Counted from the stretch's first letter, positions 5,157 through 47,960 are shown. The stretch is 64,000 bases of DNA from Syntrophorhabdales bacterium (GCA_035315185.1 DATFYE010000101.1:115-64114); one strand, 5' to 3'. Translations and numbers: made by a program. Notes: generated by a model from the letters alone, not told the origin.

Positions 5157-5175
5157 CATAAGAACGAGGTCGCCC

Positions 5176-15425: not shown

Positions 15426-17185
15426 TCAGACTTGGGACCATTGCCGACAGGTCTCGAAACGCCCCAGCCCTCATCCGGTGGTGTAGGTATCATCTTCACC
15501 ACGTAATCGCCGGATCCATAAAGAGAGCCACTCACATAGTAACGCTCTCTGTTGTCCTCGGCTGTCAAAGAGAAAATCGATTTGTCGTAAGGACGAACCC
15601 GCAGGGACATCGGTACGTCCATCAGATCGAGGAGGGTCGCGAAATTGTTCAGATGGGAAACCCGGATGCCGGGGCGAATGCCGGCTATGGACCCCTTCTT
15701 GTCATATCGCTCGCCGACCACGAAGAACTCGGGTACGTCGGCGATCACCTTGTCAGGCTTCCCATGGCTATACACTTGCCCACGCTCGGCCAACGTCTGG
15801 CCATGGTCCGATGTGTACAGGATGACATAATTCTGATTTGTCGTACCGGAAACGAACGCCCGGAAGAATTGATCCACCTGAAAGCGAATCCCGTTGTCAT
15901 AGGTATTGACGAGCTTCTCGCGTCCGGTCGGGCTGGGGTCAACGGGTTCCAATGCTTTGGAAACCGGCTTCCAAACCGTAAAGGCCGGATCGTCCGGGTA
16001 TCTATTGCGATACTGGAAATGGAGACCCTTCTTGTTGACGAGAATGAAATAGCCGCCTCTTTCATTCAGAAGACTACTGAGAAAGCGGGCTACACCCACG
16101 TCCTTCGCGGTTTTAAGATCGATGTGACGCTCCACGAAGGACTGGTCGTTCATCCACCGGTCCAGGGATCTCACGCGACCCTTCCGGGCCTTTTTCATAA
16201 GCACAGAAAGGTAGCCATGATCGATGTCGATGTAGATGGTCTCGTAGCCCATTTTCTTTGCGTAATCAAAGAGGGTCGGGTTCTTGAGTGTTCGAAAGGC
16301 GTCGTCGGGAAATGCGTTGTGGCCGGAAACGAGATAGGCATTGCTCAAGTGGGAAAGGGTGCCGGCAGAAACAGAAATGCCGAGATTCTTCAGGCGCCCC
16401 TGGGTCTCGAGGGATTGAAGGAACGGTGTGGTGGCGCGCGGGTATCCGTTCAGACTGAGATTGCTGCCACGAACTGACTCATCGATGATATAGATGATGC
16501 TGTCAAGCGGCCGTTGGGAGGCGTGAAAGGTCGGCAGGTCTTCTCGGGGTCCATGATATTCGCGGAGTGTTTCGAACTCGTAATGAAGTGTTGTACGGAC
16601 GAAGGAGGTCAAAGGATTCACATTGAAATTGCGTTCAGGCACGTGGAGGAAGAGTGCGTAATTGGAAGCGAGGAGGTAGAACACCGGTAGTAGGCTGAGG
16701 GCGAGGGACTTTCGGAAGGTGGACCTGGAGGGGACGAGAATCAGTGTGGAGAGAACGAGTGCGTAAGGGAGAGCATACAAGAAGATGAGCGGATTGACAA
16801 AGCTTAAGATGGCTTCTCCGAGGGTGTCCACGCCGACGGTCAAGACGAGATACAGGTCGGTGCCTGTCATGAACTGGTCCAGCGTCAGCCAATAGGAGAA
16901 TTCGACGACTACAAAGAAAGCAGAAACAAGCAGGGCCACCGCGCGGGGAATTCTGGGGAGGAGAAGGATGAGATAGAAGAGGGCGACCACCTGGAGGAAG
17001 ACCAGCGCGAGGGCGCCCGAGAACTTCATGGTGCCGACGATCGGGAGCAAATGGAGTAGGGCTCGGTAATCGCTGAACCTGAAAATGGGATCAATGAGGA
17101 GAGCGAGCGTCGCCGCAACAAAGGCACTCATCGCACGGGGATAGGGTGCTTGAGTGATGGCGCGAAGGGGATGATACTTTGGCAT
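15422..17185 (-). CDS. membrane-anchored sulfatase-fold transferase (phosphoethanolamine-transferase/LTA-synthase-like)
   Basis: N-terminal polytopic TM region. C-terminal sulfatase-fold motifs IIDESVRGSNLS, SAGT(L)S and YTSDHGQ. The start ATG overlaps the permease stop (TGATG). Confidence 0.7.
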   Translation of the reverse strand: MPKYHPLRAITQAPYPRAMSAFVAATLALLIDPIFRFSDYRALLHLLPIVGTMKFSGALALVFLQVVALFYLILLLPRIPRAVALLVSAFFVVVEFSYWLTLDQFMTGTDLYLVLTVGVDTLGEAILSFVNPLIFLYALPYALVLSTLILVPSRSTFRKSLALSLLPVFYLLASNYALFLHVPERNFNVNPLTSFVRTTLHYEFETLREYHGPREDLPTFHASQRPLDSIIYIIDESVRGSNLSLNGYPRATTPFLQSLETQGRLKNLGISVSAGTLSHLSNAYLVSGHNAFPDDAFRTLKNPTLFDYAKKMGYETIYIDIDHGYLSVLMKKARKGRVRSLDRWMNDQSFVERHIDLKTAKDVGVARFLSSLLNERGGYFILVNKKGLHFQYRNRYPDDPAFTVWKPVSKALEPVDPSPTGREKLVNTYDNGIRFQVDQFFRAFVSGTTNQNYVILYTSDHGQTLAERGQVYSHGKPDKVIADVPEFFVVGERYDKKGSIAGIRPGIRVSHLNNFATLLDLMDVPMSLRVRPYDKSIFSLTAEDNRERYYVSGSLYGSGDYVVKMIPTPPDEGWGVSRPVGNGPKSE

Positions 17186-18300
17186 CACTTGCCCTCTTCC
17201 CATTTGGTGGCTATTATGCCCAGGATAAAGACCACGGCCGCAAAAACCCCTATGATCGCGGAGTATCTCAGCGCGGTCGTGTGGTCGACAAATATCATGG
17301 ATGCCCGGAGCCCCTCGTTCACGTAGTACAGAGGCAGTATCCTGGCGAGCGTCTGCAAGAAGTCCGGCATCATCTCGATGGGGAAGAAGCTCCCCGAGAG
17401 GAACATCATCGGGAACGTGATGGCGTTTGCCGCTGCTGCGGCGCTCTGCGCCTCCTTCACGAAGCGGGTGAGTATCATCCCGATTCCGACGAACGCGAAG
17501 ACGTCAAGCACAATGAACACGGGAAGCCAGGCATTTATCTGCAGGCTAACCTTAAACACGGCGTAGCTCGCCAGCAGCATCGCAATCGTGGATACGACCG
17601 CGAGTATGAACTGGTACAGGATGTTGGACAGTATCCAGTCGGTGCGGGTGATGGGCGTGGTGGATAGCTTCCTGATGACACCCTTCTGCCGCAGCTCCGT
17701 GTTCAAGTTCACCGTGCCGAACAGGCTTGCTGTCATCACCGCCATCGCGATGATGCCGGGGATGAAGAAGTCGATGAACCGGTACTTTTTGGTGAGTATA
17801 GAGCTCTCGGCCGTGTTGATAAACGGGGGCTGTCCGGATACCTCCTGGTTTATCACGGCGAAGACCGAGTTCAGTATTTGCATCTTTGTGGACGCCGAAC
17901 TAGAACTGGGGTCATATACGTAGGTAAGGGTAACTGATGCGCTGGGATCGTCGGTATCGATACGCTGATTGAAGGATCTTTCATAATCTTTGGGAATAAT
18001 GAGGAGAAGGTTGGCTTTGTTCTCTTTGGCGTACTCCGTGGCGTTGACGGCGGGGTCGACCTTGGTTATCTTGAGCTTCCCGTTAAGCTTTAGGGTCTCG
18101 ATGAGATGCGCCGAGGAGTTGGTGTGGTCGAGGTCCTGCACGTAAAGGTCGAAGCTCGCGTTGTCCTGGTCCATGAAAATGCTGCCGAACACGAGTATCA
18201 GGATGATCGGGAACGCAATCGTGAAGAACATTGCGGTCTTCTCGCGGTAGAAACTCTTAATGCTCACGACGAGATTAGCGCCGACCACGCGCAGGTTCAT
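17185..18300 (-). CDS. ABC-2 type transporter permease
   Basis: N-terminal TM segment, a large extracytoplasmic loop, then 5 C-terminal TM segments, as in ABC-2/YhhJ-like permeases. ATGA overlap with the ATPase gene. Confidence 0.8.
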   Translation of the reverse strand: MNLRVVGANLVVSIKSFYREKTAMFFTIAFPIILILVFGSIFMDQDNASFDLYVQDLDHTNSSAHLIETLKLNGKLKITKVDPAVNATEYAKENKANLLLIIPKDYERSFNQRIDTDDPSASVTLTYVYDPSSSSASTKMQILNSVFAVINQEVSGQPPFINTAESSILTKKYRFIDFFIPGIIAMAVMTASLFGTVNLNTELRQKGVIRKLSTTPITRTDWILSNILYQFILAVVSTIAMLLASYAVFKVSLQINAWLPVFIVLDVFAFVGIGMILTRFVKEAQSAAAAANAITFPMMFLSGSFFPIEMMPDFLQTLARILPLYYVNEGLRASMIFVDHTTALRYSAIIGVFAAVVFILGIIATKWEEGK

Positions 18301-19250
18301 TCCGCCTCCCTTCCCCCGGCAGGGCCTTCGCGGAGCGCTTCGCCAGTAAGTTTAAGGAACACCTCTTCGAGGTTGGGCTTGCGAACGTCCAGGGTGAGCA
18401 ACGACGCCCCGGCGTCCTTGATGGTGTTCAGTATCTTCCGTACGTCGTCCGTGTGCTCCACCCTGATCTTGATGTTCTTGTGGTTGTCATGGACCGGCTC
18501 AAAACCCATCTTCCGGACGATTTCAAAGGCTTTTTCATCGACGGACTGTAGCGTGAGGACCAGGTAATTCGCGTTGCTTTCTATGAGCTCCCCCGGGGAA
18601 CCCATCGCGATGATCTTCCCCTTCGAGATGATTGCGACCGTGTCTGCAAGAAGCTCCGCCTCCTCCATGTAGTGCGTGGTGAGAAATATCGTCTTCCCCT
18701 TCTTCTTCAAGCCCAACAGGACTTCCCACACCTCGCGCCTTGCGCGGGGGTCGAGCCCTGTTGTCGGCTCGTCGAGGAACACGACCTCGGGGTCGTTCAC
18801 GAGCGCAATCGCGATTCCGAGGCGCTGCTTCAAGCCACCGGAGAGGTTCTTGTACTGCTCTTTGGTCTTCTCCTTGAGGTTCACGAGCTCTATCAGGCCG
18901 TCGATATCGGTGTTCCTGACGCGGAAAAGTAGCGAGTAGTACTGCAGGGTCTCCCTGACCGTTATCCTGTCGAACGAGCTGAACCCTTGCGGGAGTACGC
19001 CGATGCGGGGGACGATGTCGTACTTCTTCTTCGTGACATCCAGCCCCAGAAGGCTCACTCTTCCCGACGTGGGCGTACGAATCGTATCGATGATCTCGAC
19101 GGTCGTGGTCTTTCCCGCGCCGTTCGGGCCCAGCAGGGCGAACACCTCGCCTTTCCTGACGTTGAATGATATGTCGTTCACCGCCAGCAAATCCCCGTAA
19201 CGCTTCGTCAGTTTCTCGACTTCGATTACGTGTTCAGCTTCTTTCATCAT
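18297..19250 (-). CDS. ABC transporter ATP-binding protein (ABC-2/DrrA-like)
   Basis: Walker A GPNGAGKTT, signature LSGGLKQR, Walker B VVFLDEPTTGLD. Confidence 0.9.
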   Translation of the reverse strand: MMKEAEHVIEVEKLTKRYGDLLAVNDISFNVRKGEVFALLGPNGAGKTTTVEIIDTIRTPTSGRVSLLGLDVTKKKYDIVPRIGVLPQGFSSFDRITVRETLQYYSLLFRVRNTDIDGLIELVNLKEKTKEQYKNLSGGLKQRLGIAIALVNDPEVVFLDEPTTGLDPRARREVWEVLLGLKKKGKTIFLTTHYMEEAELLADTVAIISKGKIIAMGSPGELIESNANYLVLTLQSVDEKAFEIVRKMGFEPVHDNHKNIKIRVEHTDDVRKILNTIKDAGASLLTLDVRKPNLEEVFLKLTGEALREGPAGGREAE

Positions 19251-19253
19251 GGA

Positions 19254-20450
19254 TTAGATTTTGCCTCTATGGGGCGGCGAACAAGGATGTGCTCCTGTCA
19301 GCCCCGGGGCCAGTACATCCGAGGCGGCGAGGGGGGAGACGGCGGGCCAGAACCCGAGGTATCTGAGGATCTTCTCGATCACCGCCTGCTGATGGATAAG
19401 AAAACGGTCAATCACCGGCTGGCGGTGCTTGAATAAAATAAGGCTCGGGATAAACGTCGCACCCAGATGCGCTTTGGTTTTCTCCGCGCCCTGACCCGCG
19501 TGATAGAGAGGGATTTTTTGCTCGACGCAGTAGCGGACATTTTCAAGCCAGGACAACACATAAAGGTTGTATTTGCGGCCGAGCTCGTAATCCATGCAGA
19601 AATATTTATCCACCATCGCTTCTTGTCTTACGACGAGAAGGTTAAAAGCGGCCAGTTCTTCTTGCACAAAATAGAGCGTGTACTCGGCGCCCGGGACTCT
19701 CTCACAGATTTTTTCAAGAAATAAGCGGTTGTGCGCGCCAAACGCCATGGGACCCCGCTCCACTGTTTCCAGATAAAGCTTGTAGATCCTGTCCAGAAAA
19801 GGAGAAATATTGCGACTTCGAATCACCCTGACTTCGTGGAAGGCACGCATTTTGCGACGCAGGTCTTTTCTCGCGGCTCTTGAAAGGCGGCTTAAGTATT
19901 CCTCCAGGCTGTTAAAAGTAATCGGCAGTCGGGCGCAAGGCAGACCTTGAACCCGGTTGAACTTTTTGAATACTTCGCCGGGGAGTTTGCCGTGATGATT
20001 AAAGTTGTAAAACGCCACGATGTCGCTTTTAAGTTCGGTCGCGAGCGTTTGTAAGGCGTCCAGGGCCATTTTCCATGCCGCCTCAAGGGTGCCTGCATCA
20101 ATTTGAGGATCAATCCCGATTTCACTCCATTCCCCTACTAACAGTCCCACGCCTAAAACACGGGGATGAAAAATTGAGGGGATGAGACGGACTGCCGCTT
20201 TCAGCGATGTCTTGATCCATCCCCGCGCAAAAGTGGACAAATCAAAAAGGCTTTCAAACAAAGGCAACAAGAGAATAGGAGCATCATCTTTTGACACCAC
20301 GATACTCCGCAGGTTAAAACCGTCAATACCCGATTCTTGCAACAGAGAAAGAAGAGGGGCAGTACTGGAAGGCTCCGGAAAAAGCCGTCCTAGTTCCGCC
20401 GACGACACTACGTCTAACCGGGGCACGCAATTGCAGGTAAGGTTATTCAT
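19254..20450 (-). CDS. FemAB-like/DUF482-type GNAT-fold acyltransferase
   Basis: C-terminal half (SLEEYLSRLSRAARKDLRRK.., YHAGQGAEKTKAHLGATFIPS) matches the pattern I recall for the DUF482/BioF2-like acetyltransferase family. 8-nt overlap with the PPTase gene. Confidence 0.55.
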   Translation of the reverse strand: MNNLTCNCVPRLDVVSSAELGRLFPEPSSTAPLLSLLQESGIDGFNLRSIVVSKDDAPILLLPLFESLFDLSTFARGWIKTSLKAAVRLIPSIFHPRVLGVGLLVGEWSEIGIDPQIDAGTLEAAWKMALDALQTLATELKSDIVAFYNFNHHGKLPGEVFKKFNRVQGLPCARLPITFNSLEEYLSRLSRAARKDLRRKMRAFHEVRVIRSRNISPFLDRIYKLYLETVERGPMAFGAHNRLFLEKICERVPGAEYTLYFVQEELAAFNLLVVRQEAMVDKYFCMDYELGRKYNLYVLSWLENVRYCVEQKIPLYHAGQGAEKTKAHLGATFIPSLILFKHRQPVIDRFLIHQQAVIEKILRYLGFWPAVSPLAASDVLAPGLTGAHPCSPPHRGKI

Positions 20451-21195
20451 GGCCCGTCGGTCTCCAATTCAAGAGGGCGATGGAAAGCCACATCTTCACC
20501 TGGGGAAGAGAATGTACCCATAGGGACCGGCCAGTAGTTATGGGAAACCGCGCCAGCGCCTTTCCTGATAAGCCCACCGGAAAGGTATACCCGCCGTTCT
20601 CCCCTATTGGCCCCTCTACCGACGGATAGACGGTGATTTGCCGCGGATCCACGAGATGGAATGCACAGCCCAGGGCCTTAACAACGGCTTCCTTGACAGA
20701 CCAAAGCAGGGCTGATGCCTTTTCCAAATCTCCGCCCGCCAACCTCAAGGCGTGTTGAAGCTCTTGTGTATGGAAGACCCGGTGAAAGGGGTATTCTCCT
20801 TGGAATTCATCGGTCCCCGCCACATCGATGCCGATCTCAGACTCATCTCCACAGAGAGCGGCCCAGACCTTTCCCCCACCTTGGCTGAAGGAGATGGCCG
20901 GACCCTGATATTCTCCCAACAGGAGATGGGGCCTGCCAAGCGGGCCGCGGACCACCTGAATCGGGAAAGCAGCGCTGTTGGAGGATTGACAGCGTTTCCA
21001 AAGAGGACTTTCCATCGCCGCTAGGTGATCCCACAGGATCGAGACTAAACGGGTTTCGGCGGCATGTGGCATGGATGCATAGAAGACGGGTCCCCTTCCA
21101 TGAACGGAACTCACGGCATGAACGGTTGATCCTTGGCGATCCTTTGTCGCATCTACTTCCATCCTTCCCAAAAGCTGCGTTCTTTCTGGGCCCAT
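20443..21195 (-). CDS. 4'-phosphopantetheinyl transferase (Sfp type)
   Basis: Motifs GRPHL, ISFSQ, IGIDVA and WSVKEAVVKALG. Start uncertain (the N-terminal 60 aa or so are atypical). Confidence 0.8.
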   Translation of the reverse strand: MGPERTQLLGRMEVDATKDRQGSTVHAVSSVHGRGPVFYASMPHAAETRLVSILWDHLAAMESPLWKRCQSSNSAAFPIQVVRGPLGRPHLLLGEYQGPAISFSQGGGKVWAALCGDESEIGIDVAGTDEFQGEYPFHRVFHTQELQHALRLAGGDLEKASALLWSVKEAVVKALGCAFHLVDPRQITVYPSVEGPIGENGGYTFPVGLSGKALARFPITTGRSLWVHSLPQVKMWLSIALLNWRPTGHE

Positions 21196-21200
21196 AATGC

Positions 21201-24200
21201 TCAGTCCGAAACCCAGTGCATGCGCATAGTATGGACCTGCATGATGGTGCGGCCTTGATCGTCAATCCCTCTGGCGTCCCAGGAGAGGCCTTCCTCGTCC
21301 TGTGCCCGCATGCGGGCCTCCAGGGTTATCTGTTCTCCCACCCGGCATTTTCGCAAAAACCTTATCTCCCCGATTTCCATGGGAATCATAGATCGTCGCT
21401 CCGCTGGGTCCGTTGCGGCGGTGTGGAAGCCGGCCAACTGCAGGAGGGCCTCAAAAAGGTAGGGAGAATACTGGTACCGTGCGTTCCGCGGATTTGCGAA
21501 ATCACTTGTCTCCCGGTAGATGGTTGCGCCCCGTACCACCCCCGGGCCGGCACCGTCAAGGAACTCGATCACGCGATACCTGCCTTCGAGGCCGCTGCGG
21601 TCTTTGTACCATTTAAGCACTTTCTTATGATCCATAGGGCTCGTCCGCAGTTCGTCCGGCCGGACAGGAAAATCAGGGAGCCCCTCCCCCAGATATCCTC
21701 CACCGCCATCCGCGCCATCCGTGCCATCAAGGATGACCTGGCCCTCGCAGTGCGGGATGAAGCGGTCGGTCAACCTCCCGGCGGGGGAGATCTCCTGTGC
21801 TGCGAGAGAGACCTCGCACAATACCTCCCGAAGACCCGTGCCGGCCCGGCGGCAGGAGATCCTGGAAGGCCGTGAAATCCCGGGAGGACATTGGATCATG
21901 TCCATGAGCCGCACCTGGCGAACACCTCGCACCTGCAGGTGGGGATACAGGATCCGGGCGGCTTCCATGAATGTCTCCAGAACCATGGCGGCCGAGACCA
22001 GGGGATGCTTGACGAACCTGAAAGGCCTGTGATCCGCGATCCAAAGATCCTTCTCCAGGGAGAAAGATCTGAAGGCCTCCAGTTCATCCCGACGGATGTC
22101 CAGGCAGGAGATCCTCTCTATCATGGGGAAGTCCCCGGGGCTGAAGGAGACGGTGCCTCCAACCAGTTCTCCACCGGTCGAAGGACGGGTTGTATCATCG
22201 AGCAGTGACGTATTCACGGATGGCAGCCTCCTCATGAACATCACCCACACGTCGTCGGCCGTGGATGCAAAGAGTTCCCGGCAGAACAATCCCGCAAGCT
22301 CATTTACATGGACGTACGCCACGCCCTTCCGCTTCATCAGCTCCCGGACCTCCGGATCCTCGGCCATGCCCGCCCCCTCGACAGGGGAAAGCATCAAGGC
22401 CTTGAACCGGATGGCGCCGTTTTTCCGGCGGAGGGCTCTGAGTAGCGCAGACATCATCCGGTTGGCTGCAGCGTAGTTGGCCTGGCCGGGATTCCCCTGG
22501 ATCGCGGCCGCCGAGGAAAGGCCCACGAAAAACCTCAAGCCGGCCCCCTCCCCAGCCGAGAATAGGTTCCAGGCCCCGAGGAATTTGACGTCCGTGACCG
22601 TGGAGAAATCATCCGGGGTCATTTGGCTCAAAAGGCCATCCCTGAGGACTCCGGCGCCGTGAATAATCCCGTCGATCTTGCCATAGCGGCTTGCCACTTC
22701 ATTCATGATCGCGCGGACTGCCTTGGGGTCAGTCACATCGCAGGTGTGGTACGCTGCGTCGATCCCTGAGGCGTGCAAATCCGCCAAGGTCCGGGCGATC
22801 TCCGATGCCCTGTGGTCGGAAGTGAACCCCTCGGAAGACGAACGTTCGGGGTACGGCTTTGCGGGATTGGTGCCTGGATCGAGAGAAGTCCTCCCCAGGA
22901 AGACCAGGCGGGGCGCGAAAGGCACAAGGCAGCGGGCCAGGTGGGCGCTGATCCCCGTTGCGCCTCCGGACATGACTACAACGTCTCCAGGGCTTATATT
23001 CAGACTTGACGAATCCCCGAAGATCGAGGGGGCTACGTGCGCCTCCGAAGTGAAGACCCTGCCATCACGATGCATGATCTCCACCACGGTGCATCCTCTG
23101 TCCAGAGCATTGCGCAGAGCAACGCCTATGTCGGTATCCCCGTCGATTTCCAATGTGCGAAACTGGACCGATGGGTGTTCCTGCGCCGCGCTCAAAAAAA
23201 GCCCGAGCATCCCTTCCGCCAGCAGCCGAACGGGAGTTTCGCTATCCTCCCTGGAATGAATCAGCACCACAAATTTCTTGGCCGGTGATTGAAGAAACGC
23301 CTTCAGCAGGAGAAAGAGCCCCCTTAGAAGCCGCGAAATATCCACCAAGTTTCTTAACCTCCCCGACGCACCTTGACAGAGGTTGATGACCACCCCGGAA
23401 AGGGACGACAGGCCCGCTATGCTATCTACAGCCCCGGAGGCCCCTTCATCGGTTCGAATGTCATAGCCCTCTTCGCCCGGACCCAAGTTCCCTTGCATGA
23501 ACAGCATTGGAAGCGTATCAACCCCGTAATCCAGTCGGAGGATGTCCCCTGCACTTCTGGCAATCCCGCCATCCCTGTCGGGTGAGAGAAGGAGGACTGA
23601 CTCGCCCGGGCTCAATTCCATGGGAATAGAGGCCGCCAACTTTACAGTGGCCTGGTTGAATACGAGCCGCTTTAGGCTCACCTCATCCTCTGAGGACTTC
23701 AGGATTTCATTCCGCACTTCAGGGTCAACAGCCTCGGTGGCCGGCTGAAGGCTGGTGCCTCCCTGTCTGGCGATAACCTTAGAGATCCTTTGAGCGATGT
23801 CCTTCACGGTACGGACGCCTATAAAGTCCTCTAATTCGATAGTGATCCCGAATTGGCGTTCCGCACCATCCATGATGATGGGGAGCCGGCTCGATCGAAT
23901 GGACAGGTCTCTTCTGAGATCCATATTGGGTTGGATCTCGTCCCTATTGAATCCTGTAGCATCCATGATAATTCGAATGAGCCTCTCCATAAGATCTTGC
24001 TGCTCAGACGCCTCACCTGGGGCAGGGACGAGGGGGGGGGATACAGGGGCAGGGGGACGCGGAGACACTGAGACACGGAGAGGCGGAGCCTCTCCCCCTG
24101 TTGCAGAACCCACAAGCATGGATTCGATAACGGATGATAGGTCGCCTTCTTGGAATGTTGGGTCAAGCTCCTGGCGGATGGCTTCCAGGATGTTGGGCTT

Positions 24201-27200
24201 GAGGGAGCCGCCGAAGGTCTCTATCACGAATCGGTTGATTTCCCTTTGAATGATGCTCTCCACCGGGTTGGAGTCTGCAAGCCCCGGTTCCGACGTTCGT
24301 AACGCGGGTGCCGGGGCGATTCGGTGAGATTCGGGAGTTTTTCTGAATGCAGAGGGGGAAACAAACCTCGGTTCTCCATCAACCTTCAGATGACCTTGAA
24401 CGAAGAGTTGAGCAAGAGCGGTCTTGTAGGTCAGGCCCTCTGTGGAAGAAAGGCACGTCGGGATACATACCGATTCAGGAAGCGTGTCCGCGATGAGATT
24501 GCTCAGTGTTTCGCCGGGGCCCACCTCCACGAAGAGCCGGACTCCGTAGTCGTTCCAAAGGGCCTGGACGTTATTCATCCAGTGGACGGTAGATTCCAGG
24601 TGGGCCATCAGGATTCGCCTGATCTCATCGGGATCTGATGGATACGGTGCCATGATCGTGTTGGAGATGACGGGAATCCGCGGGGAATGAAATGGAATGG
24701 AGGCAATGTACGCCTCGAGCTCATCATGGATGACCTTCATGATAGGGGAGTGGAAGGCCATGCTGACCCGCAAGAGGGTGGCCCGGTGGCCCATTTCCTT
24801 CAATCGTTTGCAGAGATCCTTGACCGCCTCTGTGCCGCCGCTCAGGACGATCTGGTTCGGTGAATTGATATTGCCGATGTGGATATTGTCCCGTCCCCGG
24901 ATCATCTCTTGCAGCAGATCCGAAGGGACGTCCGTGGCCGCCATAACGCCGGGGTCCACGTGCATGCCGGCGGCCTTGTCCATGCAGAGGGCCCGCTTGT
25001 TCACGATTCGAAACCCGTCCTCCGGGGAATAGACACCGGCCATGCACAAGGCGGTCAGCTCGCCCAAGCTATGGCCGGCCATGGCCACAGGATGGATGCC
25101 GAGGGTCGTGAGGTGTCGAGCCATGGCATGTTCCATGGCGAACATGGCAGGCTGCTGCCACCGCGTCTTCTGAAGATTTTCCTCTTGATCGTGGAACAAT
25201 AAGTGAAGGAGGTCGAAGTCCGCTACGGCTGCAGTCCGATCCATCCACTCCCTGATGACGGGAAAGGACTCGTAGAGCTCCCGTCCCATTCCGCTATACT
25301 GTGACCCCTGTCCTGGAAATACAAAGGCGAGCGGTAGGGCCGGCACATCCTTGCGGCTCATGAAAATTCCCTGTTGCGCCAGGGACCTCAATGCCTTGGG
25401 CGAGGCGATTCCGGATTCGGCAAGGAGGGCCGACCCCTCGACGACATTGAGCGCCTCCTCTTCAGATTGCGCCACGACGGCCATCCGGCAGTTACGGCCG
25501 TCCATCTCGGTCCGGAAGAAAGAGACGCCCTGGAGCGTGGGAGTGCCTCCACCCTTCTCTCCAGGGAGACTGGGCCCTCTGCCCGGGGAGACTAGTATGG
25601 TATCCACTTCATCCATGGTCTGCTCCACCTGCACAACGTAGTTGGAACCTCCGAACCCGAAGGCGTTCACCTGAAACCTTCTTGGCTGGTTGTCCCTACC
25701 CCTCCAATCAAGGGGCTCCGGGCCGATGAGGAGACCCGATCCTTCCAGGTCGATTTCCGGGTCTGGATGCATATAGTTGAGGGTGGGAGGAAAAATCCCC
25801 GCCTTCATGGCCGTGACCCCTCGAATGAGGTTATTAATGCCCGAGGCGCCCAGCGTGTGTCCGATCTGGGATTTGAACGAGGTGATCACGGTGCGCCTGG
25901 TGGAATTGAAGACGGACTTCAGGGCACGGGCCTCCTCCAGGTCTCCTTGCCGGGTGCTCGTGGCATGGCATTCCACCAGGTCCACTCCATCGGGCCCATA
26001 GGGTAGCCCTCGGAAAGAGGCGCGGATGGCGATCTCTTGGGTGACACTGGCGGACTCCACCATGCCCAGATGGTTGTTGCTCGCTCCCATGCCGGTGATG
26101 ACGGCGTGGACAGGCGCCCCTCTTGCGCGGGCCAAACTTTCCCGCTCGATGACGATCATTCCCCCGCCTTCGCCGAGGACCATCCCGTCTCTTTCAGCAT
26201 CGAAGGGGCGGGAGGTCTCCTGAGCGGGTCTTTCGTGTCCGGACACCCCGTAAAGTGCGCCCAGGGCGGAGAATTCCACAAAATGCAGGTGTGTGAGATT
26301 TTCCTCGCCCCCTCCGACGATGGCTGCATCGATGATGCCGTTTCGGATCATCTGGACGGCGCTGTGAAGTGCGACCAATGAGGTGGCGCAGGCTGCGGAG
26401 ACGGAATAGCTGGGCCCCATGAACCCATACCGGTTGCAGACGAAGCCGCCCGCTGCGCAGTTGAGTCTGCCCAGGAGCGTGCTGTCGTCCGGGGCCATGC
26501 GTCCGGATTTCACCTCCTGTTCGATAGCGCTCTCCTGATCCGGCGTGAGGTGAATGGCCCTTTTGATGGCGGCAAGGATGTCGTAAAAGTACCCCCTGAC
26601 GATCATGTTGGTGAGGGTCCCCGCCGCCTCTCCCGAGTTCTGGGAGATCAGGACTCCGATTCGCTCGCGTGGGATGTCTGACTCCAGGATGCCGGATGCC
26701 CGGATGGCCCTGTCCGCAAGCCACATGGTCATCCTTGTGGCCACGGTCATGCTCCGGAAATCATGGGGAGGAATCCCGAGTTCACTGCGGGAGGCATGAA
26801 AATCCGCGAAGGCGCCCACCTTGCAGTAGGTCTTGTCCGGGACGTGCAGCCGGGGATCATAAAAACGCTCATGATCCCACCGGGAAGGCGGAACCAATGT
26901 AATACCGCTCTTCATGGCCAAGCTTGCAGCCCACACCTCCTCCGGGCTCTTTCCCAGGGCGTTGATGATGCTCATCCCGGTGATGGCAACCCTTTCGGAA
27001 TCGTCTCTGCGGGGGGCGACTCGTTTCAGCCCACGGCCGACCCCGGAGGACGGAGTTTCCAGGGTTTTCTCGATTGACCCCACAACCGGCTGATACAGCA
27101 GGAGAGGACCTTCGGCAAGCTCGCGGTGAAAGGACTGCAGCGTCTGATCCTTAACGATGAGGCCGGCGCACGCCCCACTCATGAATTGCCCGCGCTCCAG

Positions 27201-29126
27201 ACAGGCCCGCTCATCCAGAGCCACCCCTCCTGGCCTGTCCATACCCCGGGCCGCAGTGAAGAGGCTCCCCGCAGCCATCTCCTCCATGCTCGTCCGGAAA
27301 GAGGCCTCGTCCTGATGACCCGCTGCAAACTCCCTCTCCAGAGACAAAATAGCTGCCACCCTGGGGGTCCTCAAAGCGCGCACCCGAAGCCCGGTGTGCC
27401 GGCCCGAAACGGCCGTTCCCCCCGGCGGCGATTCCAGGACCATCCTCTGATAGAGCGTTGTCAAGGCGCCCGTTTCAACGATCTCCCGGGTGGCCAGGTA
27501 AATGGTGCCCATTTGGATGGCATCCGCGCCCAGCATGGCGGCCAAGAATGCTGTCTCCCGATTAAAGATTCCCCCAGCAAGGATCACCCGACAGTTTTGG
27601 AAAAGGGTGGGCGCGCGCCGCTTGAGATCCAACACCATTTGAGCAAGGGTGAGCGTGCTGTGCTGCCCCACATGGCCGCCGGCCTCATATCCCTCGCAGA
27701 CCACGTACCGGGCGCCGGCTTCCAGGACGAGCTTCAGCAGGGCCTCATCGGGCGCGATATACATGACCGCTATGCCGCACTCTATCAATTCCCTTAAAGA
27801 GGAGAGATCGCCACCCGCGATCACGACAAACCGGGGTCTCTGTTTCTTTATCCAGGCCAGTTGCGTCTCCCTGAAAGGGTTTTCTACCAAAGAGACGAGA
27901 TTCACTGCATAAGGGCGCCCGCCCATGATCTCCGGCAGGCGTCCCAGCCTCCGGTCAAGGGCCTCCGCGTCCATCAGGCCAAGGGCGATAGTGGGCAATC
28001 CACCGGCATCGGCAACTCTTGAGGCAAACTCCGGGACATCGGTGATCCAGGACATGGCGCCCTGGATAAAAGGATAGAGGGTTCCCATCTCTCTGGCTAC
28101 AGGGCTGTCCAGAAAGCAATTCTTTTTTGCCTCGGCCAGGCGGCATACGTTACGAATTTCGTCCATGAAGGCTTTCACGGCCTCCTCGGTTCCGGTCCCG
28201 AAACGCTCAACGAACGACGCGGCAAAGGCAGCTTCCACGCCCAGAGGGATGACCTCGTCCTGACCGAAATGGCTCTCCAGCGGGTGGAGGGCCCTGGCAT
28301 GCACCTGGCTTACGAAGGCGCGGCGGCTTTCCTCCTCGATCTTTGCTCCGTACAGCAAGTCCTCGAACGCCTGGATCTCCCTGAACGCATGCGAGTTTCC
28401 CTTATTAAAAAGGCGACAGGGAACCTCGAGGTCCAGGCCCACCAGATCAGTAGAATCGAGGCGGAGGTTGGAGAGCCGCTGGTGTTGAAACGCATCGATA
28501 GCAACCATATCCGTCAGCCAATGGAGGCTCTCGAAAACGATCCCGGTTGCCCCGGTCGACAGGAATGCCGCTGCCGCCTCAGGGGTGCAGATGCCTCCCC
28601 AGATGAGGACGTCGGGAGGCTTTAAGGCTGTGCGCAGCATTTCCTTGACCATCGAATAGAGAGCCATGGTCGTCTCACCGCTCACGAATCCGGAGGCCTC
28701 GCATCCTTTCAACACGATGCGCCCGACGCCCGAGCTATCCTTTAAAATCACTGCCAGGACATCCATGTCGCCGATGATCGGAAAGCAACGGTTGTTTTCC
28801 GACAATTCCCTCAATCTCTGTAGGAAGCTGGAAGACTCTCCTTGAAAAAACTGGGGGTGGCACTCTATCCAGATGTCGTGGACCCCTGTTTCCTTCAATA
28901 ACTGCCCCAATGATGGATCAAAGAAGGTAGGGACAGAAATCTTGATATCCCTCACGTGGGCGGCAGGGTCAGCCTTTCGTAAGAAAGAACGTAACCCGTC
29001 CACCCCCATAATGGAAAAATCGAAGACGGCTCTGCACCCTGTTCGCTGAGCCATCTGAATCACCGATGGGATGATCTCATCGGGCCGCCAGACGAAACCG
29101 ATAATAGAAACCCGATGCTCAGCCAC
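21201..29126 (-). CDS. iterative type I FAS/PKS-like synthase: NMO-like(degenerate)-ER-KS-AT-ACP-KR-DH
   Basis: 2641-aa ORF with domain motifs in the order listed in the domain features below. No thioesterase or reductase release domain is seen. Confidence 0.95.
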   Translation of the reverse strand: MAEHRVSIIGFVWRPDEIIPSVIQMAQRTGCRAVFDFSIMGVDGLRSFLRKADPAAHVRDIKISVPTFFDPSLGQLLKETGVHDIWIECHPQFFQGESSSFLQRLRELSENNRCFPIIGDMDVLAVILKDSSGVGRIVLKGCEASGFVSGETTMALYSMVKEMLRTALKPPDVLIWGGICTPEAAAAFLSTGATGIVFESLHWLTDMVAIDAFQHQRLSNLRLDSTDLVGLDLEVPCRLFNKGNSHAFREIQAFEDLLYGAKIEEESRRAFVSQVHARALHPLESHFGQDEVIPLGVEAAFAASFVERFGTGTEEAVKAFMDEIRNVCRLAEAKKNCFLDSPVAREMGTLYPFIQGAMSWITDVPEFASRVADAGGLPTIALGLMDAEALDRRLGRLPEIMGGRPYAVNLVSLVENPFRETQLAWIKKQRPRFVVIAGGDLSSLRELIECGIAVMYIAPDEALLKLVLEAGARYVVCEGYEAGGHVGQHSTLTLAQMVLDLKRRAPTLFQNCRVILAGGIFNRETAFLAAMLGADAIQMGTIYLATREIVETGALTTLYQRMVLESPPGGTAVSGRHTGLRVRALRTPRVAAILSLEREFAAGHQDEASFRTSMEEMAAGSLFTAARGMDRPGGVALDERACLERGQFMSGACAGLIVKDQTLQSFHRELAEGPLLLYQPVVGSIEKTLETPSSGVGRGLKRVAPRRDDSERVAITGMSIINALGKSPEEVWAASLAMKSGITLVPPSRWDHERFYDPRLHVPDKTYCKVGAFADFHASRSELGIPPHDFRSMTVATRMTMWLADRAIRASGILESDIPRERIGVLISQNSGEAAGTLTNMIVRGYFYDILAAIKRAIHLTPDQESAIEQEVKSGRMAPDDSTLLGRLNCAAGGFVCNRYGFMGPSYSVSAACATSLVALHSAVQMIRNGIIDAAIVGGGEENLTHLHFVEFSALGALYGVSGHERPAQETSRPFDAERDGMVLGEGGGMIVIERESLARARGAPVHAVITGMGASNNHLGMVESASVTQEIAIRASFRGLPYGPDGVDLVECHATSTRQGDLEEARALKSVFNSTRRTVITSFKSQIGHTLGASGINNLIRGVTAMKAGIFPPTLNYMHPDPEIDLEGSGLLIGPEPLDWRGRDNQPRRFQVNAFGFGGSNYVVQVEQTMDEVDTILVSPGRGPSLPGEKGGGTPTLQGVSFFRTEMDGRNCRMAVVAQSEEEALNVVEGSALLAESGIASPKALRSLAQQGIFMSRKDVPALPLAFVFPGQGSQYSGMGRELYESFPVIREWMDRTAAVADFDLLHLLFHDQEENLQKTRWQQPAMFAMEHAMARHLTTLGIHPVAMAGHSLGELTALCMAGVYSPEDGFRIVNKRALCMDKAAGMHVDPGVMAATDVPSDLLQEMIRGRDNIHIGNINSPNQIVLSGGTEAVKDLCKRLKEMGHRATLLRVSMAFHSPIMKVIHDELEAYIASIPFHSPRIPVISNTIMAPYPSDPDEIRRILMAHLESTVHWMNNVQALWNDYGVRLFVEVGPGETLSNLIADTLPESVCIPTCLSSTEGLTYKTALAQLFVQGHLKVDGEPRFVSPSAFRKTPESHRIAPAPALRTSEPGLADSNPVESIIQREINRFVIETFGGSLKPNILEAIRQELDPTFQEGDLSSVIESMLVGSATGGEAPPLRVSVSPRPPAPVSPPLVPAPGEASEQQDLMERLIRIIMDATGFNRDEIQPNMDLRRDLSIRSSRLPIIMDGAERQFGITIELEDFIGVRTVKDIAQRISKVIARQGGTSLQPATEAVDPEVRNEILKSSEDEVSLKRLVFNQATVKLAASIPMELSPGESVLLLSPDRDGGIARSAGDILRLDYGVDTLPMLFMQGNLGPGEEGYDIRTDEGASGAVDSIAGLSSLSGVVINLCQGASGRLRNLVDISRLLRGLFLLLKAFLQSPAKKFVVLIHSREDSETPVRLLAEGMLGLFLSAAQEHPSVQFRTLEIDGDTDIGVALRNALDRGCTVVEIMHRDGRVFTSEAHVAPSIFGDSSSLNISPGDVVVMSGGATGISAHLARCLVPFAPRLVFLGRTSLDPGTNPAKPYPERSSSEGFTSDHRASEIARTLADLHASGIDAAYHTCDVTDPKAVRAIMNEVASRYGKIDGIIHGAGVLRDGLLSQMTPDDFSTVTDVKFLGAWNLFSAGEGAGLRFFVGLSSAAAIQGNPGQANYAAANRMMSALLRALRRKNGAIRFKALMLSPVEGAGMAEDPEVRELMKRKGVAYVHVNELAGLFCRELFASTADDVWVMFMRRLPSVNTSLLDDTTRPSTGGELVGGTVSFSPGDFPMIERISCLDIRRDELEAFRSFSLEKDLWIADHRPFRFVKHPLVSAAMVLETFMEAARILYPHLQVRGVRQVRLMDMIQCPPGISRPSRISCRRAGTGLREVLCEVSLAAQEISPAGRLTDRFIPHCEGQVILDGTDGADGGGGYLGEGLPDFPVRPDELRTSPMDHKKVLKWYKDRSGLEGRYRVIEFLDGAGPGVVRGATIYRETSDFANPRNARYQYSPYLFEALLQLAGFHTAATDPAERRSMIPMEIGEIRFLRKCRVGEQITLEARMRAQDEEGLSWDARGIDDQGRTIMQVHTMRMHWVSD
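21204..22139 (-). other. synthase domain: PKS-type dehydratase / double hot-dog (aa 2330-2641)
   Basis: LWIADHRPFRFVKHPLVSAAMVLE resembles the N-terminal DH His motif. The C-terminal half is hot-dog-like. Catalytic competence not established. Confidence 0.6.
22377..22994 (-). other. synthase domain: ketoreductase (aa 2045-2250)
   Basis: SGGATGIS NADPH motif. LSSAAAIQGNPGQANYAAAN with the catalytic Tyr. Confidence 0.85.
23772..24005 (-). other. synthase domain: single ACP with atypical Ser motif (aa 1708-1785)
   Basis: DLRRDLSIRSSRLPIIM aligns with the canonical DLGIDSIKRVEI. The putative Ppant Ser is aa 1745. A Pro/Ala-rich linker precedes it. Confidence 0.6.
24447..25337 (-). other. synthase domain: acyltransferase (aa 1264-1560)
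   Basis: FVFPGQGSQ, GHSLGE (aa 1351-1356), MAFHS (malonyl-type xAFH). Confidence 0.85.
25617..26996 (-). other. synthase domain: ketosynthase (aa 711-1170)
   Basis: Active-site Cys in VSAACATS (about aa 913). ECHATST and GHTLGASG His motifs. FGFGGSN. Confidence 0.9.
27087..28109 (-). other. synthase domain: enoyl reductase, PfaD/FabK (nitronate monooxygenase) type (aa 340-680)
   Basis: YPFIQGAMSWI, CEGYEAGGHVG (aa 477-487), ILAGGI, GADAIQMGT. Confidence 0.8.
28137..29126 (-). other. synthase domain: N-terminal degenerate NMO/TIM-barrel-like module (aa 1-330)
   Basis: KGCEASGFVSGETT (aa 140-153) parallels the ER motif CEGYEAGGHVGQHST but lacks the His. Boundaries approximate. Confidence 0.45.
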
Positions 29127-29171
29127 TATATCCAGCCCCTTCCTTCAAGGCGATACGTTCACCTTTTAAAA

Positions 29172-30293
29172 TTATAAAGACTTTCTGAATATGCGATATT
29201 TTTTGTACTTTTTTGCGCCAGCTTCCTCTATCAATGAGTTGATGGACTCGTTGTCCTCCAGGGTCCAGCCCAACTCCAGATAATGATATTTCTCTTTTTT
29301 CCTCACAACCTCATAGATGTGGTGGAAGGCTAACATGGGGAGTCCCAGTTGTCGGTACTTCTCCTTGATCCCGAACATCAACAACCGCAATCCGTTGATC
29401 TCCCGCCGATACATGAGGAACTTCAGCACACCCATCAGACCGATCCGCCCGTTGAGACGCTTGAGCAATGGGTTAATGTCAGGAAAGATCACGCAGAACG
29501 CTGCGGGCTCATCCTCATAATAGATGAAGAAAACCATGTCCGGATCCACGAATTCCATTACGTTCTTTTGAATGTCCCGCATCTCATTATCGCTCAGGGG
29601 GACGAAACCCCAGTTACTGGACCAGGCGGCATTATATATCTCTCTGATCAGAGCAAACTCAGAGTCCGGATCCTTCGGACGAGAGACCCTGATGTGAATA
29701 CCTCTTTTTTGGGTGATCCGCTCAGCAAGACGATCCATCCACTCGGGAAGCCGGTAATCGCCATCTATCAAAAAGGCCGCCAGGTCCTTTTCTTTGGTGA
29801 AACCGCACGATTCTACCAACCCTGGGTAGTACGGCGGGTTGTAAGCCATCATCAAGGCAGGCGGATAATTGAATCCCTCAATGAGCAGGCCCACCTCGTA
29901 ATTGGTGGACGGGTTGAGCGGGCCTCTCAGGAAGGTCATCCCCTTCTGGCGAACCCACGTCTCCACGGAAGAGAAGAGGGCCGCCGCGGCCTCCGGATCG
30001 TCAGCACATTCGAAGAATCCCCAAATGCCCATCTTTTCGCTGTGAAACTGGTTATAATGGCGGTCTATAATGCCTACAATCCTTCCCACCGTCTCCGAAC
30101 CGCGTCGGGCCAGAAAGAGGATACGCTCGGAAAACTCCCAGAAAGGGTGTCTGCTGGAGTCCAGCATCCGGCGAACCTCCTTCTTAAGGGGAGGAACCCA
30201 GTTGGGGTACTCAGCATAGATCTTCCATGGGAGGTCAATGAAGTCCTTTAATGCCGAGCCGCCTTCGACAGCAATAATCTCTATGCTGGCCAT
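29172..30293 (-). CDS. GNAT-fold acyltransferase-like protein (family not named)
   Basis: 373 aa. The C-terminal segment GIKEKYRQLGLPMLAFHHIY..LELGWTLEDN looks like a GNAT acyl-CoA-binding core. The N-terminal half also looks GNAT-like. 45 nt upstream of the synthase gene. Confidence 0.5.
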   Translation of the reverse strand: MASIEIIAVEGGSALKDFIDLPWKIYAEYPNWVPPLKKEVRRMLDSSRHPFWEFSERILFLARRGSETVGRIVGIIDRHYNQFHSEKMGIWGFFECADDPEAAAALFSSVETWVRQKGMTFLRGPLNPSTNYEVGLLIEGFNYPPALMMAYNPPYYPGLVESCGFTKEKDLAAFLIDGDYRLPEWMDRLAERITQKRGIHIRVSRPKDPDSEFALIREIYNAAWSSNWGFVPLSDNEMRDIQKNVMEFVDPDMVFFIYYEDEPAAFCVIFPDINPLLKRLNGRIGLMGVLKFLMYRREINGLRLLMFGIKEKYRQLGLPMLAFHHIYEVVRKKEKYHYLELGWTLEDNESINSLIEEAGAKKYKKYRIFRKSL

Positions 30294-30376: not shown

Positions 30377-30943
30377 TTACTTTTCCACTTGTTTTCGTAT
30401 TCTTTCAACATCTGCATGCTTCACGTATCCAACGATTCGAAACCATAGCGGACGGAATCCATATCCCCCGTGCTCCATTTCCTGGATCGCGTCTTCTTTC
30501 GTCCATCCTTGCTCTACCACTCTGAACATCGCGATCATAACACCCACTCTATCCGCACCACGCGAACAGTGTATCAGGAAAGGACCGTTTTCCCTTTTGC
30601 GGATTATTCGTAGAACTCTGACTACGTCTGCATCTTCAATATGCCACACATTTACGCTCAACTCTTCAACGCGTAATCCTGTCCCCTTGATCTTATCAGA
30701 ATCAGAATAGAACGCCCGCAGGTTTATTATGGTCTTTATCCCCAGCTCCTTGAGGTTCTTCATCCCTTCCTCAATTGGCTGCTCGCTTCTATAAAGATAA
30801 TCGGTGACCTTAAAAAGATTAGCAACTCCCCGCAACTGGACCGGCGTCGCCCATTCTGCCGGCCGATTGGGTTCTACTCTGTTTGAAGCGCAACTCAGGG
30901 CGGAGGACACAAAAATCAATAGCAGGGGAATTGCTTTTATCAT
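30377..30943 (-). CDS. secreted/lipoprotein dual-specificity (Cys-based) phosphatase
   Basis: Signal with Cys (SSALSCAS). P-loop HCSRGADRVG (HCxxGxxR). Confidence 0.75.
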   Translation of the reverse strand: MIKAIPLLLIFVSSALSCASNRVEPNRPAEWATPVQLRGVANLFKVTDYLYRSEQPIEEGMKNLKELGIKTIINLRAFYSDSDKIKGTGLRVEELSVNVWHIEDADVVRVLRIIRKRENGPFLIHCSRGADRVGVMIAMFRVVEQGWTKEDAIQEMEHGGYGFRPLWFRIVGYVKHADVERIRKQVEK

Positions 30944-31115
30944 ATGAGTTTTTCCAGCATTGTCTTTTGTTGCTAAGAGATGTCTTTAGCTATTATTGAG
31001 AACAAAATAGATTCTTGTCAAGTAATGTCACGACATAATGAGAGAAGCATGCTTGAGAATCCCGAAGGACATGGTGCTTAAACCTTGAAGATTTCCGAAT
31101 TCGTGCTGAAGTTTG

Positions 31116-37530: not shown

Positions 37531-37593
37531 CGGACACTTTATTTCTTGCAACCTAAACAATATGCAAAAGAATTTCTTAAGGCTGCCTCGGTA

Positions 37594-45250: not shown

Positions 45251-45336
45251 TCTCAGACAGAGCCGAAGCCCCTTGCTTACGTATGGGTGGGTCATATATT
45301 CGTATGCCAGGTGACAAACAAAAGAAAGGAGAGGGG

Positions 45337-46155: not shown

Positions 46156-46163
46156 GCCCGGCG

Positions 46164-47896: not shown

Positions 47897-47960
47897 TCGA
47901 GGAGAGCATCATGAATAAATGGCTGGCCAGGGAGGCCCTTCGCAAAAAGGTGGGCAAGGG

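Follow-up and report, generated by a model that had tools for sequence, protein, structure and literature searches.

The genes of bacterial ceramide synthesis were defined only in 2021–2022, and the first demonstration of sphingolipid synthesis that depends on a polyketide synthase (PKS), in which an alpha-oxoamine synthase (AOS) releases the chain, came in 2024–2025. GNAT-fold enzymes that take an acyl group from a carrier protein and turn it into an amide have precedents in OlsB, in the FeeM-type N-acyl amino acid synthases and in the LuxI-type acyl-homoserine lactone synthases. The bacterial ceramide synthase (bCerS), Spt, CerR and the PKS-derived sphingolipids of PfSgaAB are known already. 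Here we analyse a locus of Syntrophorhabdales bacterium, contained in a stretch of 64,000 nt (GCA_035315185.1 DATFYE010000101.1:115-64114) to which we refer, at its full length, as the window. In it, two unrelated genes of the GNAT clan, GNAT373 and Fem398, lie on either side of a type I synthase and its 4'-phosphopantetheinyl transferase (PPTase) in one tightly packed minus-strand operon. We consider the chances about even that this region is the core of a sphingolipid-type lipid cluster in which GNAT373 is the fixed partner of the synthase, which has no thioesterase (TE), and receives the acyl chain straight from it. Literature searches found no description of an acyltransferase of the bCerS type that has become the fixed neighbour of a dedicated type I synthase without TE and of a PPTase, and that has spread horizontally among anaerobes. 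The open reading frames, a 373-aa gene upstream and a 398-aa gene after the PPTase bracketing the synthase, are exactly as described in an earlier sequence-only reading of the window:

30293..29172, minus strand: GNAT373, predicted tandem-GNAT N-acyltransferase of the bCerS/YghO family, 373 aa; first gene of the operon, 45 bp from the synthase
29126..21201, minus strand: iterative type I fatty acid synthase (FAS)/PKS-like synthase, ER(NMO)-KS-AT-ACP-KR-DH, 2641 aa; assigned with Pfam and NCBIfam
21195..20443, minus strand: PPTase, 250 aa; PF01648 ACPS superfamily, 43 bits
20450..19254, minus strand: Fem398, FemAB_like/Acetyltransf_6 (BioF2-like) GNAT-clan protein, 398 aa; its first 8 bp are shared with the end of the PPTase gene

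Both GNAT-clan genes are real and strongly conserved, with hundreds of homologues in public data at 78–100% identity. Taken alone, GNAT373 matched no Pfam or NCBIfam model at E<=0.01 (NCBIfam holds no model for GNAT373 or Fem398), and in this weak or absent Pfam signal it resembles YghO of E. coli. BLASTP aligned the two proteins at 32% identity over GNAT373 residues 4-373 (L168:6980-8122, E 9e-69), and tblastn with GNAT373 on plasmid records matched E. coli yghO at 1e-57. The legend to Fig. 9 of PMC9386255 gives the N-acyltransferase gene of dihydroceramide synthesis as 'aca: CC_1154, yghO ECD_02850, Swit_3908 ...', and in PMC11324152 CC_1154 is cerS, with CC_1156/CC_1155 as LptF2/LptG2. The comparison with Caulobacter-type ceramide synthase that the sequence-only reading had proposed is thus positive for GNAT373, by way of its full-length homology to YghO, a CC_1154 homologue (PMC9386255). 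Like these bCerS proteins (Caulobacter CC_1154/CCNA_01212; E. coli B YghO, ECD_02850), GNAT373 is about 375 aa long, has a two-lobed GNAT architecture without a transmembrane segment, and is genomically tied to Spt-like AOS and CerR-like short-chain dehydrogenase/reductase (SDR) genes.

The family to which GNAT373 belongs is large, an exhaustive search at E<=1e-3 yielding 7,783 cluster representatives of proteins of ~375 aa, with thousands of relatives in the range of 35–55% identity, and it is repeatedly linked or fused to Spt-like AOS enzymes. Operons of the form AOS–GNAT–SDR (epimerase) hold GNAT373 homologues in Streptomyces and Myxococcus stipitatus, an AOS gene is followed by a GNAT373 homologue on a Planctomycetota contig, and a 780-aa protein (P0290) consists of an AOS fused to a GNAT373-family domain. 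At the E. coli yghO locus, genes for a fatty acyl-AMP ligase (FAAL), an epimerase, an acyl carrier protein (ACP), an AOS and lptF/G lie alongside, and a Roseomonas homologue sits after LptF/LptG paralogues, in agreement with the published Caulobacter numbering, in which CC_1156/CC_1155 are followed by CC_1154. The identity of GNAT373 to Spt-linked members is 32–41%, and that of those members among themselves is 33–51%. Because of these identities, the full-length YghO homology and the Spt-linked and Spt-fused relatives, we assign GNAT373 by sequence to the bacterial ceramide synthase (bCerS/CerS/YghO) family.

Several other members of this family were encountered in the course of these searches. 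The Roseomonas homologue (L169:6974-8134, from R. haemaphysalidis and other Roseomonas plasmids) carries the label 'dATP pyrophosphohydrolase', probably a propagated misannotation. A bCerS-like domain with an N-terminal PilZ occurs in P0358, and P0241 and P0391 are tandem proteins of double length. DAGK_cat is the catalytic domain family of lipid kinases, and at L085:11274-14597 a second bCerS-like paralogue, 32% identical to GNAT373, is encoded in one operon together with a DAGK_cat kinase and an alcohol dehydrogenase of the zinc type; this operon adjoins two B12-radical SAM genes and makes up another sphingolipid-type module.

Evidence at the profile level also supports a predicted GNAT fold for GNAT373. 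Pfam Acetyltransf_1 (PF00583) matches the C-terminal half in 56 of 64 distant relatives, and the family profile matched GNAT structures in the PDB, with 2ge3 at 3.7e-5 and the tandem GNAT 3tt2 at 1e-4, whereas single-sequence and close-family profile searches of the PDB gave nothing useful for either GNAT373 or Fem398. A CoA/phosphopantetheine-type motif, R314-x-x-G317, is conserved. Both proteins fall in the GNAT clan, as had been suggested. Since hhalign found no relationship between their two families, they are not paralogues. The other comparison that had been suggested, to OlsB/GlsB, came out negative: neither protein nor their relatives matched Acetyltransf_5 (PF13444) or FeeM (PF21926) even at E<=1. 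GNAT373 and Fem398 have no detectable sequence relationship to the OlsB, FeeM-type and LuxI-type enzymes.

The synthase consists, by Pfam, of an NMO/FabK-like ER, a KS, an AT, a single PP-binding domain, a KR and a PS-DH, and its NCBIfam matches are PfaA/FabK/FabF/FabD-like. Outside the ACP, whose serine motif is atypical, the catalytic motifs are intact, namely a Cys and two His in the KS, GHSLG and MAFH in the AT, YAAAN in the KR and a His motif in the DH. The single ACP domain, which has a weak PP-binding score (E 5e-5), occupies window positions 23787-23990, or synthase residues 1713-1780. The Pfam domain scan found no thioesterase domain, as the sequence-only reading had also held, and the protein terminates inside the DH.

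We then surveyed the linkage of GNAT373 to this synthase in 80 genome loci (L001-L080, one per species, GNAT373 at 76–94% identity) from metagenome-assembled genomes (MAGs) of Thermodesulfobacteriota, Nitrospirota, Planctomycetota, Aminicenantes and Binatia, many of them from peat, fen, bog and soil. In 76 of the 80, GNAT373 has the synthase downstream of it, and the remaining four are cut by contig ends or short flanks. As in the window, the two genes are ~45 bp apart in 39 loci; in about 32 of the 76 cassettes the gap measures 0.9–1.5 kb and is filled by one gene, for a 277-aa lipoprotein. In every untruncated locus GNAT373 is either directly upstream of the synthase or one lipoprotein gene away. 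The synthase is mostly 66–90% identical across these loci by best-matching segment, and the PPTase follows it in 45 of the 80, the remainder ending at the 10-kb flank or at a contig end. GNAT373, synthase and PPTase form an invariant cassette, which is set among Spt-like, CerR-like, head-group and export genes. GNAT373 is at most 54% identical to any family representative outside its own clade. Because identity within the clade is 76–94% across five phyla, the sequences imply that the cassette spread horizontally and recently, under strong constraint, across at least five phyla.

Two GNAT373–synthase cassettes occur in one MAG in two cases, L004/L010 (MFD10007.bin.2.36) and L021/L038 (SRP067234_co1_129), which suggests two paralogous lipid pathways in one organism; in the first of these MAGs the lipoprotein gene is present in L004 and absent from L010. 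This 277/278-aa lipoprotein has an AGC lipobox and no Pfam family. It is absent from the window and was located elsewhere as follows:

L055:11119-11952 and L147:11136-11972: 277/278-aa lipoprotein; also in L004, L021, L028, L033, L036, L041, L046, L051 and others

How does this arrangement compare with those already described? In the E. coli and Roseomonas loci examined, the bCerS gene does not adjoin a synthase, yghO lying next to glcC and a FAAL gene and the Roseomonas homologue behind LptF/G paralogues. The GNAT373 clade also stands out by its very tight conservation. In rhodobacteria, free-standing AcpR and AasR supply Spt (PMC9386255), whereas GNAT373 is fixed upstream of a 2641-aa synthase and its PPTase. 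A close counterpart of the synthase is PfSgaAB(C) of Pseudomonas fluorescens MYb115, an iterative PKS plus AOS for which deletions, labelling and enzyme assays established the synthesis of very-long-chain sphinganines (PMC12134224). The two systems have in common an iterative TE-less type I synthase with a full reducing loop, a long acyl chain destined for a sphingolipid (in the window by prediction), and an AOS with Spt activity in the pathway (here Spt-like by sequence). They differ in that the adjacent partner of the PKS in SgaAB is the AOS, which releases the chain into the sphingoid base, while a bCerS-type GNAT takes this position here; direct pairing of synthase and AOS is not found in the window. 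The PfSgaAB cluster has no bCerS gene and the window cluster has a bCerS-type one. The window synthase begins with a FabK/PfaD-like ER, unlike SgaA as described. PfSgaAB is found mainly in Burkholderia and host-associated bacteria, and the cassette described here in anaerobes from wetland, peat, soil and sediment metagenomes.

Turning to the remaining genes of the cluster, the operon runs 5'->3' on the minus strand from GNAT373 through the synthase, PPTase and Fem398 to an ABC ATPase, an ABC-2 permease, an EptA-like protein and a B12-radical SAM enzyme, with successive intergenic gaps of 45, 5, -8, 3, -4, -19 and -4 bp. These last genes, and those around the operon, are:

19250..18297, minus strand: ABC transporter ATPase, DrrA-like, 317 aa; PF00005, DrrA1-3_C
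18300..17185, minus strand: ABC-2 type permease, 371 aa; PF12698, PF01061; kept in related loci
17203..15422, minus strand: EptA-like membrane sulfatase-fold transferase (phosphoethanolamine-transferase family), candidate head-group enzyme, 593 aa; PF00884
15425..14070, minus strand: B12-binding radical SAM enzyme, 451 aa; PF04055, PF02310, DUF4070; after the ABC genes in related loci too
12649..13596, minus strand: GNA1162-like lipoprotein, possibly the last gene of the operon after a 473-bp gap; PF05643, 30 bits
4176..5156, plus strand: NAD-dependent epimerase/3beta-HSD-type SDR, CerR-like; Pfam
5125..6357, plus strand: AOS, Spt-like; PF00155
6410..7261, plus strand: PAP2_3 protein, a PAP2-superfamily membrane protein; PF14378
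9040-10278, plus strand: FabF-like KS; Pfam
10287-10952, plus strand: metallo-beta-lactamase (MBL)-fold protein, possible alternative hydrolytic release enzyme; Pfam
30943..30377, minus strand: DSP/PTP-type phosphatase flanking the operon; Pfam
31113-32543, plus strand: PLD/cardiolipin-synthase-like protein flanking the operon; Pfam

The full 26-kb arrangement of the window, in the order SDR, AOS, PAP2, KS, MBL, radical SAM, (Ept), ABC-2, ABC, Fem398, PPTase, synthase, GNAT373, is found again in L138 and L166, and for the most part in L145; in all three loci the SDR and AOS genes are contiguous with the cassette. The KS and MBL pair is kept at 79–91% identity in L105, L138 and L166, and in the available sequence the MBL gene is also visible in L128 and L146 and the KS gene in L145. 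In related loci the ABC ATPase comes after Fem398 or directly after the PPTase, and the phosphatase and PLD-like genes both recur beside GNAT373 in L019, L022, L037 and L060. The window AOS shares 56% identity with the Myxococcus AOS and 53% with the Planctomycetota AOS, both of which precede GNAT373 homologues, and the window SDR is 38% identical to the SDR behind the Myxococcus GNAT homologue. A PAP2_3 gene is likewise present in the Myxococcus locus and in Geobacter-type loci, where it stands together with SDR and AOS genes immediately before GNAT373, with the AOS ~1–2.5 kb upstream; we presume, from what is known of the superfamily, that the window PAP2_3 protein has a role in phospho-head-group transfer. 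The EptA-like protein scored 94 bits on NCBIfam P_eth_NH2_trans, far below the cut-off.

Three B12-binding radical SAM genes lie in or around the cluster, at 14070-15425 (minus), 34724-36229 (plus) and 37546-38967 (plus), and are candidate enzymes for methylating the lipid chains or for other C–C chemistry on them. Downstream of the cluster, an AsmA-family protein (41849-43291), an MlaE (45283-46155) and an MlaF-like ABC ATPase with an unusual fusion to GGDEF (46104-47411) are possible components of outer-membrane lipid trafficking. A further GNAT domain at 47919-50633 (plus) is unrelated to the lipid cluster finding: in this 904-aa protein it is fused to CoA_binding/Succ_CoA_lig/ATP-grasp_5 domains (ADP-forming acyl-CoA synthetase-like), the architecture of a Pat-type protein acetyltransferase.

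These genes could make up a sphingolipid-type pathway. The PPTase would activate the single ACP of the synthase, on which the synthase would build a saturated, possibly very long, acyl chain, while the Spt-like AOS (5125-6357) would make the long-chain base. GNAT373 would then bind the phosphopantetheine-linked acyl group and move it to the amine of the long-chain base or of its 3-keto precursor, this N-acyl transfer freeing the chain as an amide. The CerR-like SDR (4176-5156) would reduce the 3-keto group, the PAP2_3 and EptA-like enzymes may add head groups, and the ABC-2 transporter may export the lipid. Because a bCerS-type gene of a tightly conserved clade is fixed upstream of the TE-less synthase and PPTase, the acyl donor is probably the synthase's own ACP, and direct ACP-to-amine off-loading by GNAT373 appears to be the best-supported mechanism. 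GNAT373 stands beside the synthase universally, whereas the position of the AOS varies, which speaks for an N-acyl route.

A number of points weigh against this reading. The role of the synthase ACP as acyl donor to GNAT373 is something we infer, and the serine motif of that ACP is atypical, with DLSIRSSRL instead of the usual DSL-type motif. The tie to Caulobacter CC_1154 runs through YghO, the Caulobacter protein itself not having been aligned. As for the acceptor specificity of the clade, its nearest outside relatives, at 44–46% identity, stand alone: their flanks, as far as examined, contain neither Spt nor CerR nor PKS genes. The AlphaFold models are poor (pLDDT 54 for GNAT373, 36 for Fem398) because their alignments held only relatives of at least 78% identity, and Foldseek results for both proteins are therefore indicative only; for GNAT373, the top matches were all GNATs, led by tandem GNATs and Rv1347c at TM 0.34–0.39. 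In the case of Fem398, the family profile, including a broader version, matched no solved structure in the PDB, its Pfam neighbours include aminoacyl-tRNA-dependent enzymes, and we know of no characterised FemAB_like/Acetyltransf_6 member. The conserved MBL-fold protein of the cluster could hydrolyse the thioester. Finally, rhodobacterial members of the GNAT373 family are described as acyl-CoA N-acyltransferases (PMC9386255), and PfSgaAB, the only PKS-dependent bacterial sphingolipid pathway studied experimentally, releases its chain through the AOS (PMC12134224).

This last precedent leads to the alternative that survives best, one we regard as possible if somewhat doubtful. Here, as in SgaAB, the AOS would free the ACP-bound chain onto serine or alanine to give a very long base, and GNAT373 would be an ordinary ceramide synthase, dependent on acyl-CoA or housekeeping acyl-ACP and merely co-transcribed with the synthase. 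Besides the PfSgaAB precedent, it can draw on the preference of rhodobacterial Spt enzymes for acyl-ACP (PMC9386255), on the physical fusion of the AOS to FAAL-ACP in type-2 relatives, and on the short distance between AOS and GNAT373 in Geobacter-type loci. In the window, however, the AOS lies 15 kb from the synthase, on the other strand and at the far end of the cluster, and the synthase's constant neighbour in every untruncated locus is GNAT373, at most a lipoprotein gene away. Moreover, the part reported as extraordinarily long in environmental lipids that correlate with Desulfobacterota and/or Bacteroidota is the N-acyl chain (PMC11334938).

We next consider Fem398, which the sequence-only reading had placed on an equal footing with GNAT373 as an off-loading candidate. 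That equivalence does not hold, as GNAT373 is the invariant partner of the synthase while Fem398 is optional. Among the 41 genome loci that could be read downstream of the PPTase, Fem398 is present in 15 (~37%), 23 go straight to the ABC ATPase, and three differ. A survey of 80 metagenome loci with relatives of at least 78% identity revealed three settings for the gene: behind synthase and PPTase, as in the window; ahead of the lipoprotein gene and a FAAL-ACP-AOS fusion gene, with a divergent bCerS-like GNAT (36–37% identity), a CerR-like SDR, two KS and ABC genes on the opposite strand; and directly behind the FAAL-ACP-AOS gene, ahead of ABC genes and a radical SAM gene. The link between BioF2-like/FemAB_like proteins and alpha-oxoamine synthases that had been pointed out earlier is thus borne out by close relatives of Fem398. 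Wherever it is visible, the gene adjoining Fem398 encodes a carrier-protein megasynthase, either PKS and PPTase or FAAL-ACP-AOS, whether or not the big synthase is there, and an ABC exporter is usually found downstream. Fem398 is thus no general off-loading enzyme, since only ~37% of cassettes contain it and it is also found in clusters that lack the big synthase. The 277-aa lipoprotein gene adjoins Fem398 in clusters without the synthase too, and is present in 11 of the 15 loci with Fem398 versus 2 of the 23 without; the window, with Fem398 and no lipoprotein, is among the exceptions.

Beside Fem398 we also observed short stretches that match the 3' end of GNAT373 at 92–96% identity (L087:2-247, and ~126 bp just downstream in L088, L089, L090 and L094). 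They lie upstream of the lipoprotein gene, in a space too small for a synthase, and look like rearrangement scars between cassette variants.

By sequence, Fem398 is a FemAB_like/Acetyltransf_6 protein with its own conserved clade (78–100% identity). It scores 24.0 bits on Acetyltransf_6 (cut-off 22), 23.7 bits on FemAB_like (cut-off 27) and below the cut-off on ATE_C, with the first two matches in the C-terminal half, where it resembles FemAB_like (PF04339, DUF482/COG3146) and Acetyltransf_6 (PF13480) proteins; like these it adjoins AOS-containing enzymes in several loci. At E<=1, all 23 close relatives match FemAB_like, 22 match Acetyltransf_6 and 20 match ATE_C weakly. By tblastn, Fem398 matched Agrobacterium, Rhizobium and Sinorhizobium proteins at 1e-37 to 1e-44, the annotated Agrobacterium relative scoring 49 bits on FemAB_like. 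Annotated FemAB_like/Acetyltransf_6 proteins align colinearly with Fem398 from end to end, those of Agrobacterium, Rhizobium, Roseomonas and Xanthomonas at 25–28% identity and that of Nostoc at 18%. R194, R199, Y226, N270, Y297, G319 and K326 are invariant in the alignment, and a basic cluster, R194–R202, is conserved. A comparison with YghO found no similarity. What distinguishes the Fem398 clade from other FemAB_like/Acetyltransf_6 proteins is its association with clusters of the sphingolipid type and with an ABC-2 exporter; defined by this context, it is a new clade of an uncharacterised family.

The proteobacterial FemAB_like relatives belong to a different type of cluster, with class III aminotransferase, arginase-like, EamA and alpha/beta hydrolase proteins. 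Distant relatives of Fem398 in Xanthomonas sacchari (L177), Agrobacterium fabrum (L170) and Roseomonas gilardii (L171) lie in a conserved cluster of this kind, which shares a HAD-IB phosphatase, a class III aminotransferase, EamA and an alpha/beta hydrolase; the first two also have an arginase-like protein and ABC/TolC efflux genes (with an HlyD-type or RND-type adaptor), and the Xanthomonas locus adds an ACP and a KS. This appears to be a pathway for an exported amine lipid. The possibility that the Roseomonas Fem-like gene lies within a sphingolipid cluster was rejected: on R. gilardii pRo-1, the GNAT373-like and Fem398-like genes are ~294 kb apart by coordinate, or ~129 kb round the circle, and the latter is in a different cluster type.

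Because their contexts tie Fem398 and its relatives to carrier proteins, an exporter and amine-forming enzymes, we favour the view that Fem398 is an acyltransferase that depends on an acyl carrier and tailors an amine lipid. It would stand outside the core pathway as an optional enzyme, most likely attaching a second group, acyl (or aminoacyl), to that lipid. An unlikely alternative is that Fem398 is an aminoacyl-tRNA-dependent transferase, with chemistry like that of FemX, ATE or MprF, that aminoacylates a lipid amine or hydroxyl in carriers of the gene. The likeness of its relatives to FemAB_like and ATE_C would fit this, as would the conserved basic cluster and a lean in Foldseek to FemX, ATE1, the L/F-transferase and Sbb17, although these similarities are all weak, and the Foldseek lean is non-significant and comes from an unusable model (pLDDT 36). 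The one model above its cut-off is Acetyltransf_6, which to our knowledge is not tRNA-dependent. Lysine-containing ceramides do occur in anoxic waters (PMC11334938), but in all visible contexts of Fem398 and its relatives, close or distant, the genes are for a FAAL, a KS or a carrier protein and not for tRNA-related functions.

Returning to direct off-loading by GNAT373, we judge it improbable that the synthase is instead a general 'core' type I FAS, whose product would be freed hydrolytically, for example by the MBL-fold protein, or given to glycerolipid acyltransferases, with the GNATs using ordinary donors and having no part in off-loading. The MBL-fold gene is conserved in the cluster beside the FabF-like KS, as such a role would have it. 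Shulse & Allen proposed a possible core-FAS role for the Type S cluster found in Desulfobacterium autotrophicum, but the identity of Type S with this synthase is not confirmed. Furthermore, the cassette is patchy, having spread horizontally over five phyla at 76–94% identity, and is present twice in single MAGs (L004/L010, L021/L038). Since it is embedded among sphingolipid-type genes, a housekeeping FAS is a poor fit.

GNAT loading domains exist in PKSs and GNAT373 is directly upstream of the synthase, yet a role as a CurA-type chain-initiation loader (GNAT_L), priming the synthase by malonyl decarboxylation or by transfer of a starter acyl group to the ACP, is very improbable, given that GNAT373 is a full-length homologue of ceramide-synthase-type N-acyltransferases, that the links and fusions of its family are with AOS enzymes rather than with PKSs at large, and that no CurA-type loader is among the 42 PDB sequences matched by the family profile at E<=10.

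What lipids might such a cassette produce? In the euxinic Black Sea, 1-deoxyceramides have been described with N-acyl chains of mostly C32–C34 and up to C39, more than half of the very long chains being odd-numbered; they correlate with Desulfobacterota and/or Bacteroidota, and the C32–C39 compounds, for which no pathway was proposed, were 'not reported in any living organism' (PMC11334938). We tentatively suggest that the cassette may be the missing source of C32–C39 N-acyl 1-deoxyceramides and related sphingolipids, with a ceramide synthase acting as the release enzyme of a megasynthase, the acyl group going directly from the ACP into an amide, and with the optional pair of Fem398 and the 277-aa lipoprotein specifying a further lipid variant, acylated or aminoacylated.

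If direct off-loading by GNAT373 is true, it would represent a second route by which a megasynthase can be coupled to the assembly of sphingolipids, and a new, TE-independent logic of release. The context of Fem398 gives the uncharacterised FemAB_like/Acetyltransf_6 family a defined lipid setting. For the C32–C39 ceramides of anoxic water columns, lipids of interest as environmental biomarkers that have had no known producer, the cassette offers a concrete gene set.

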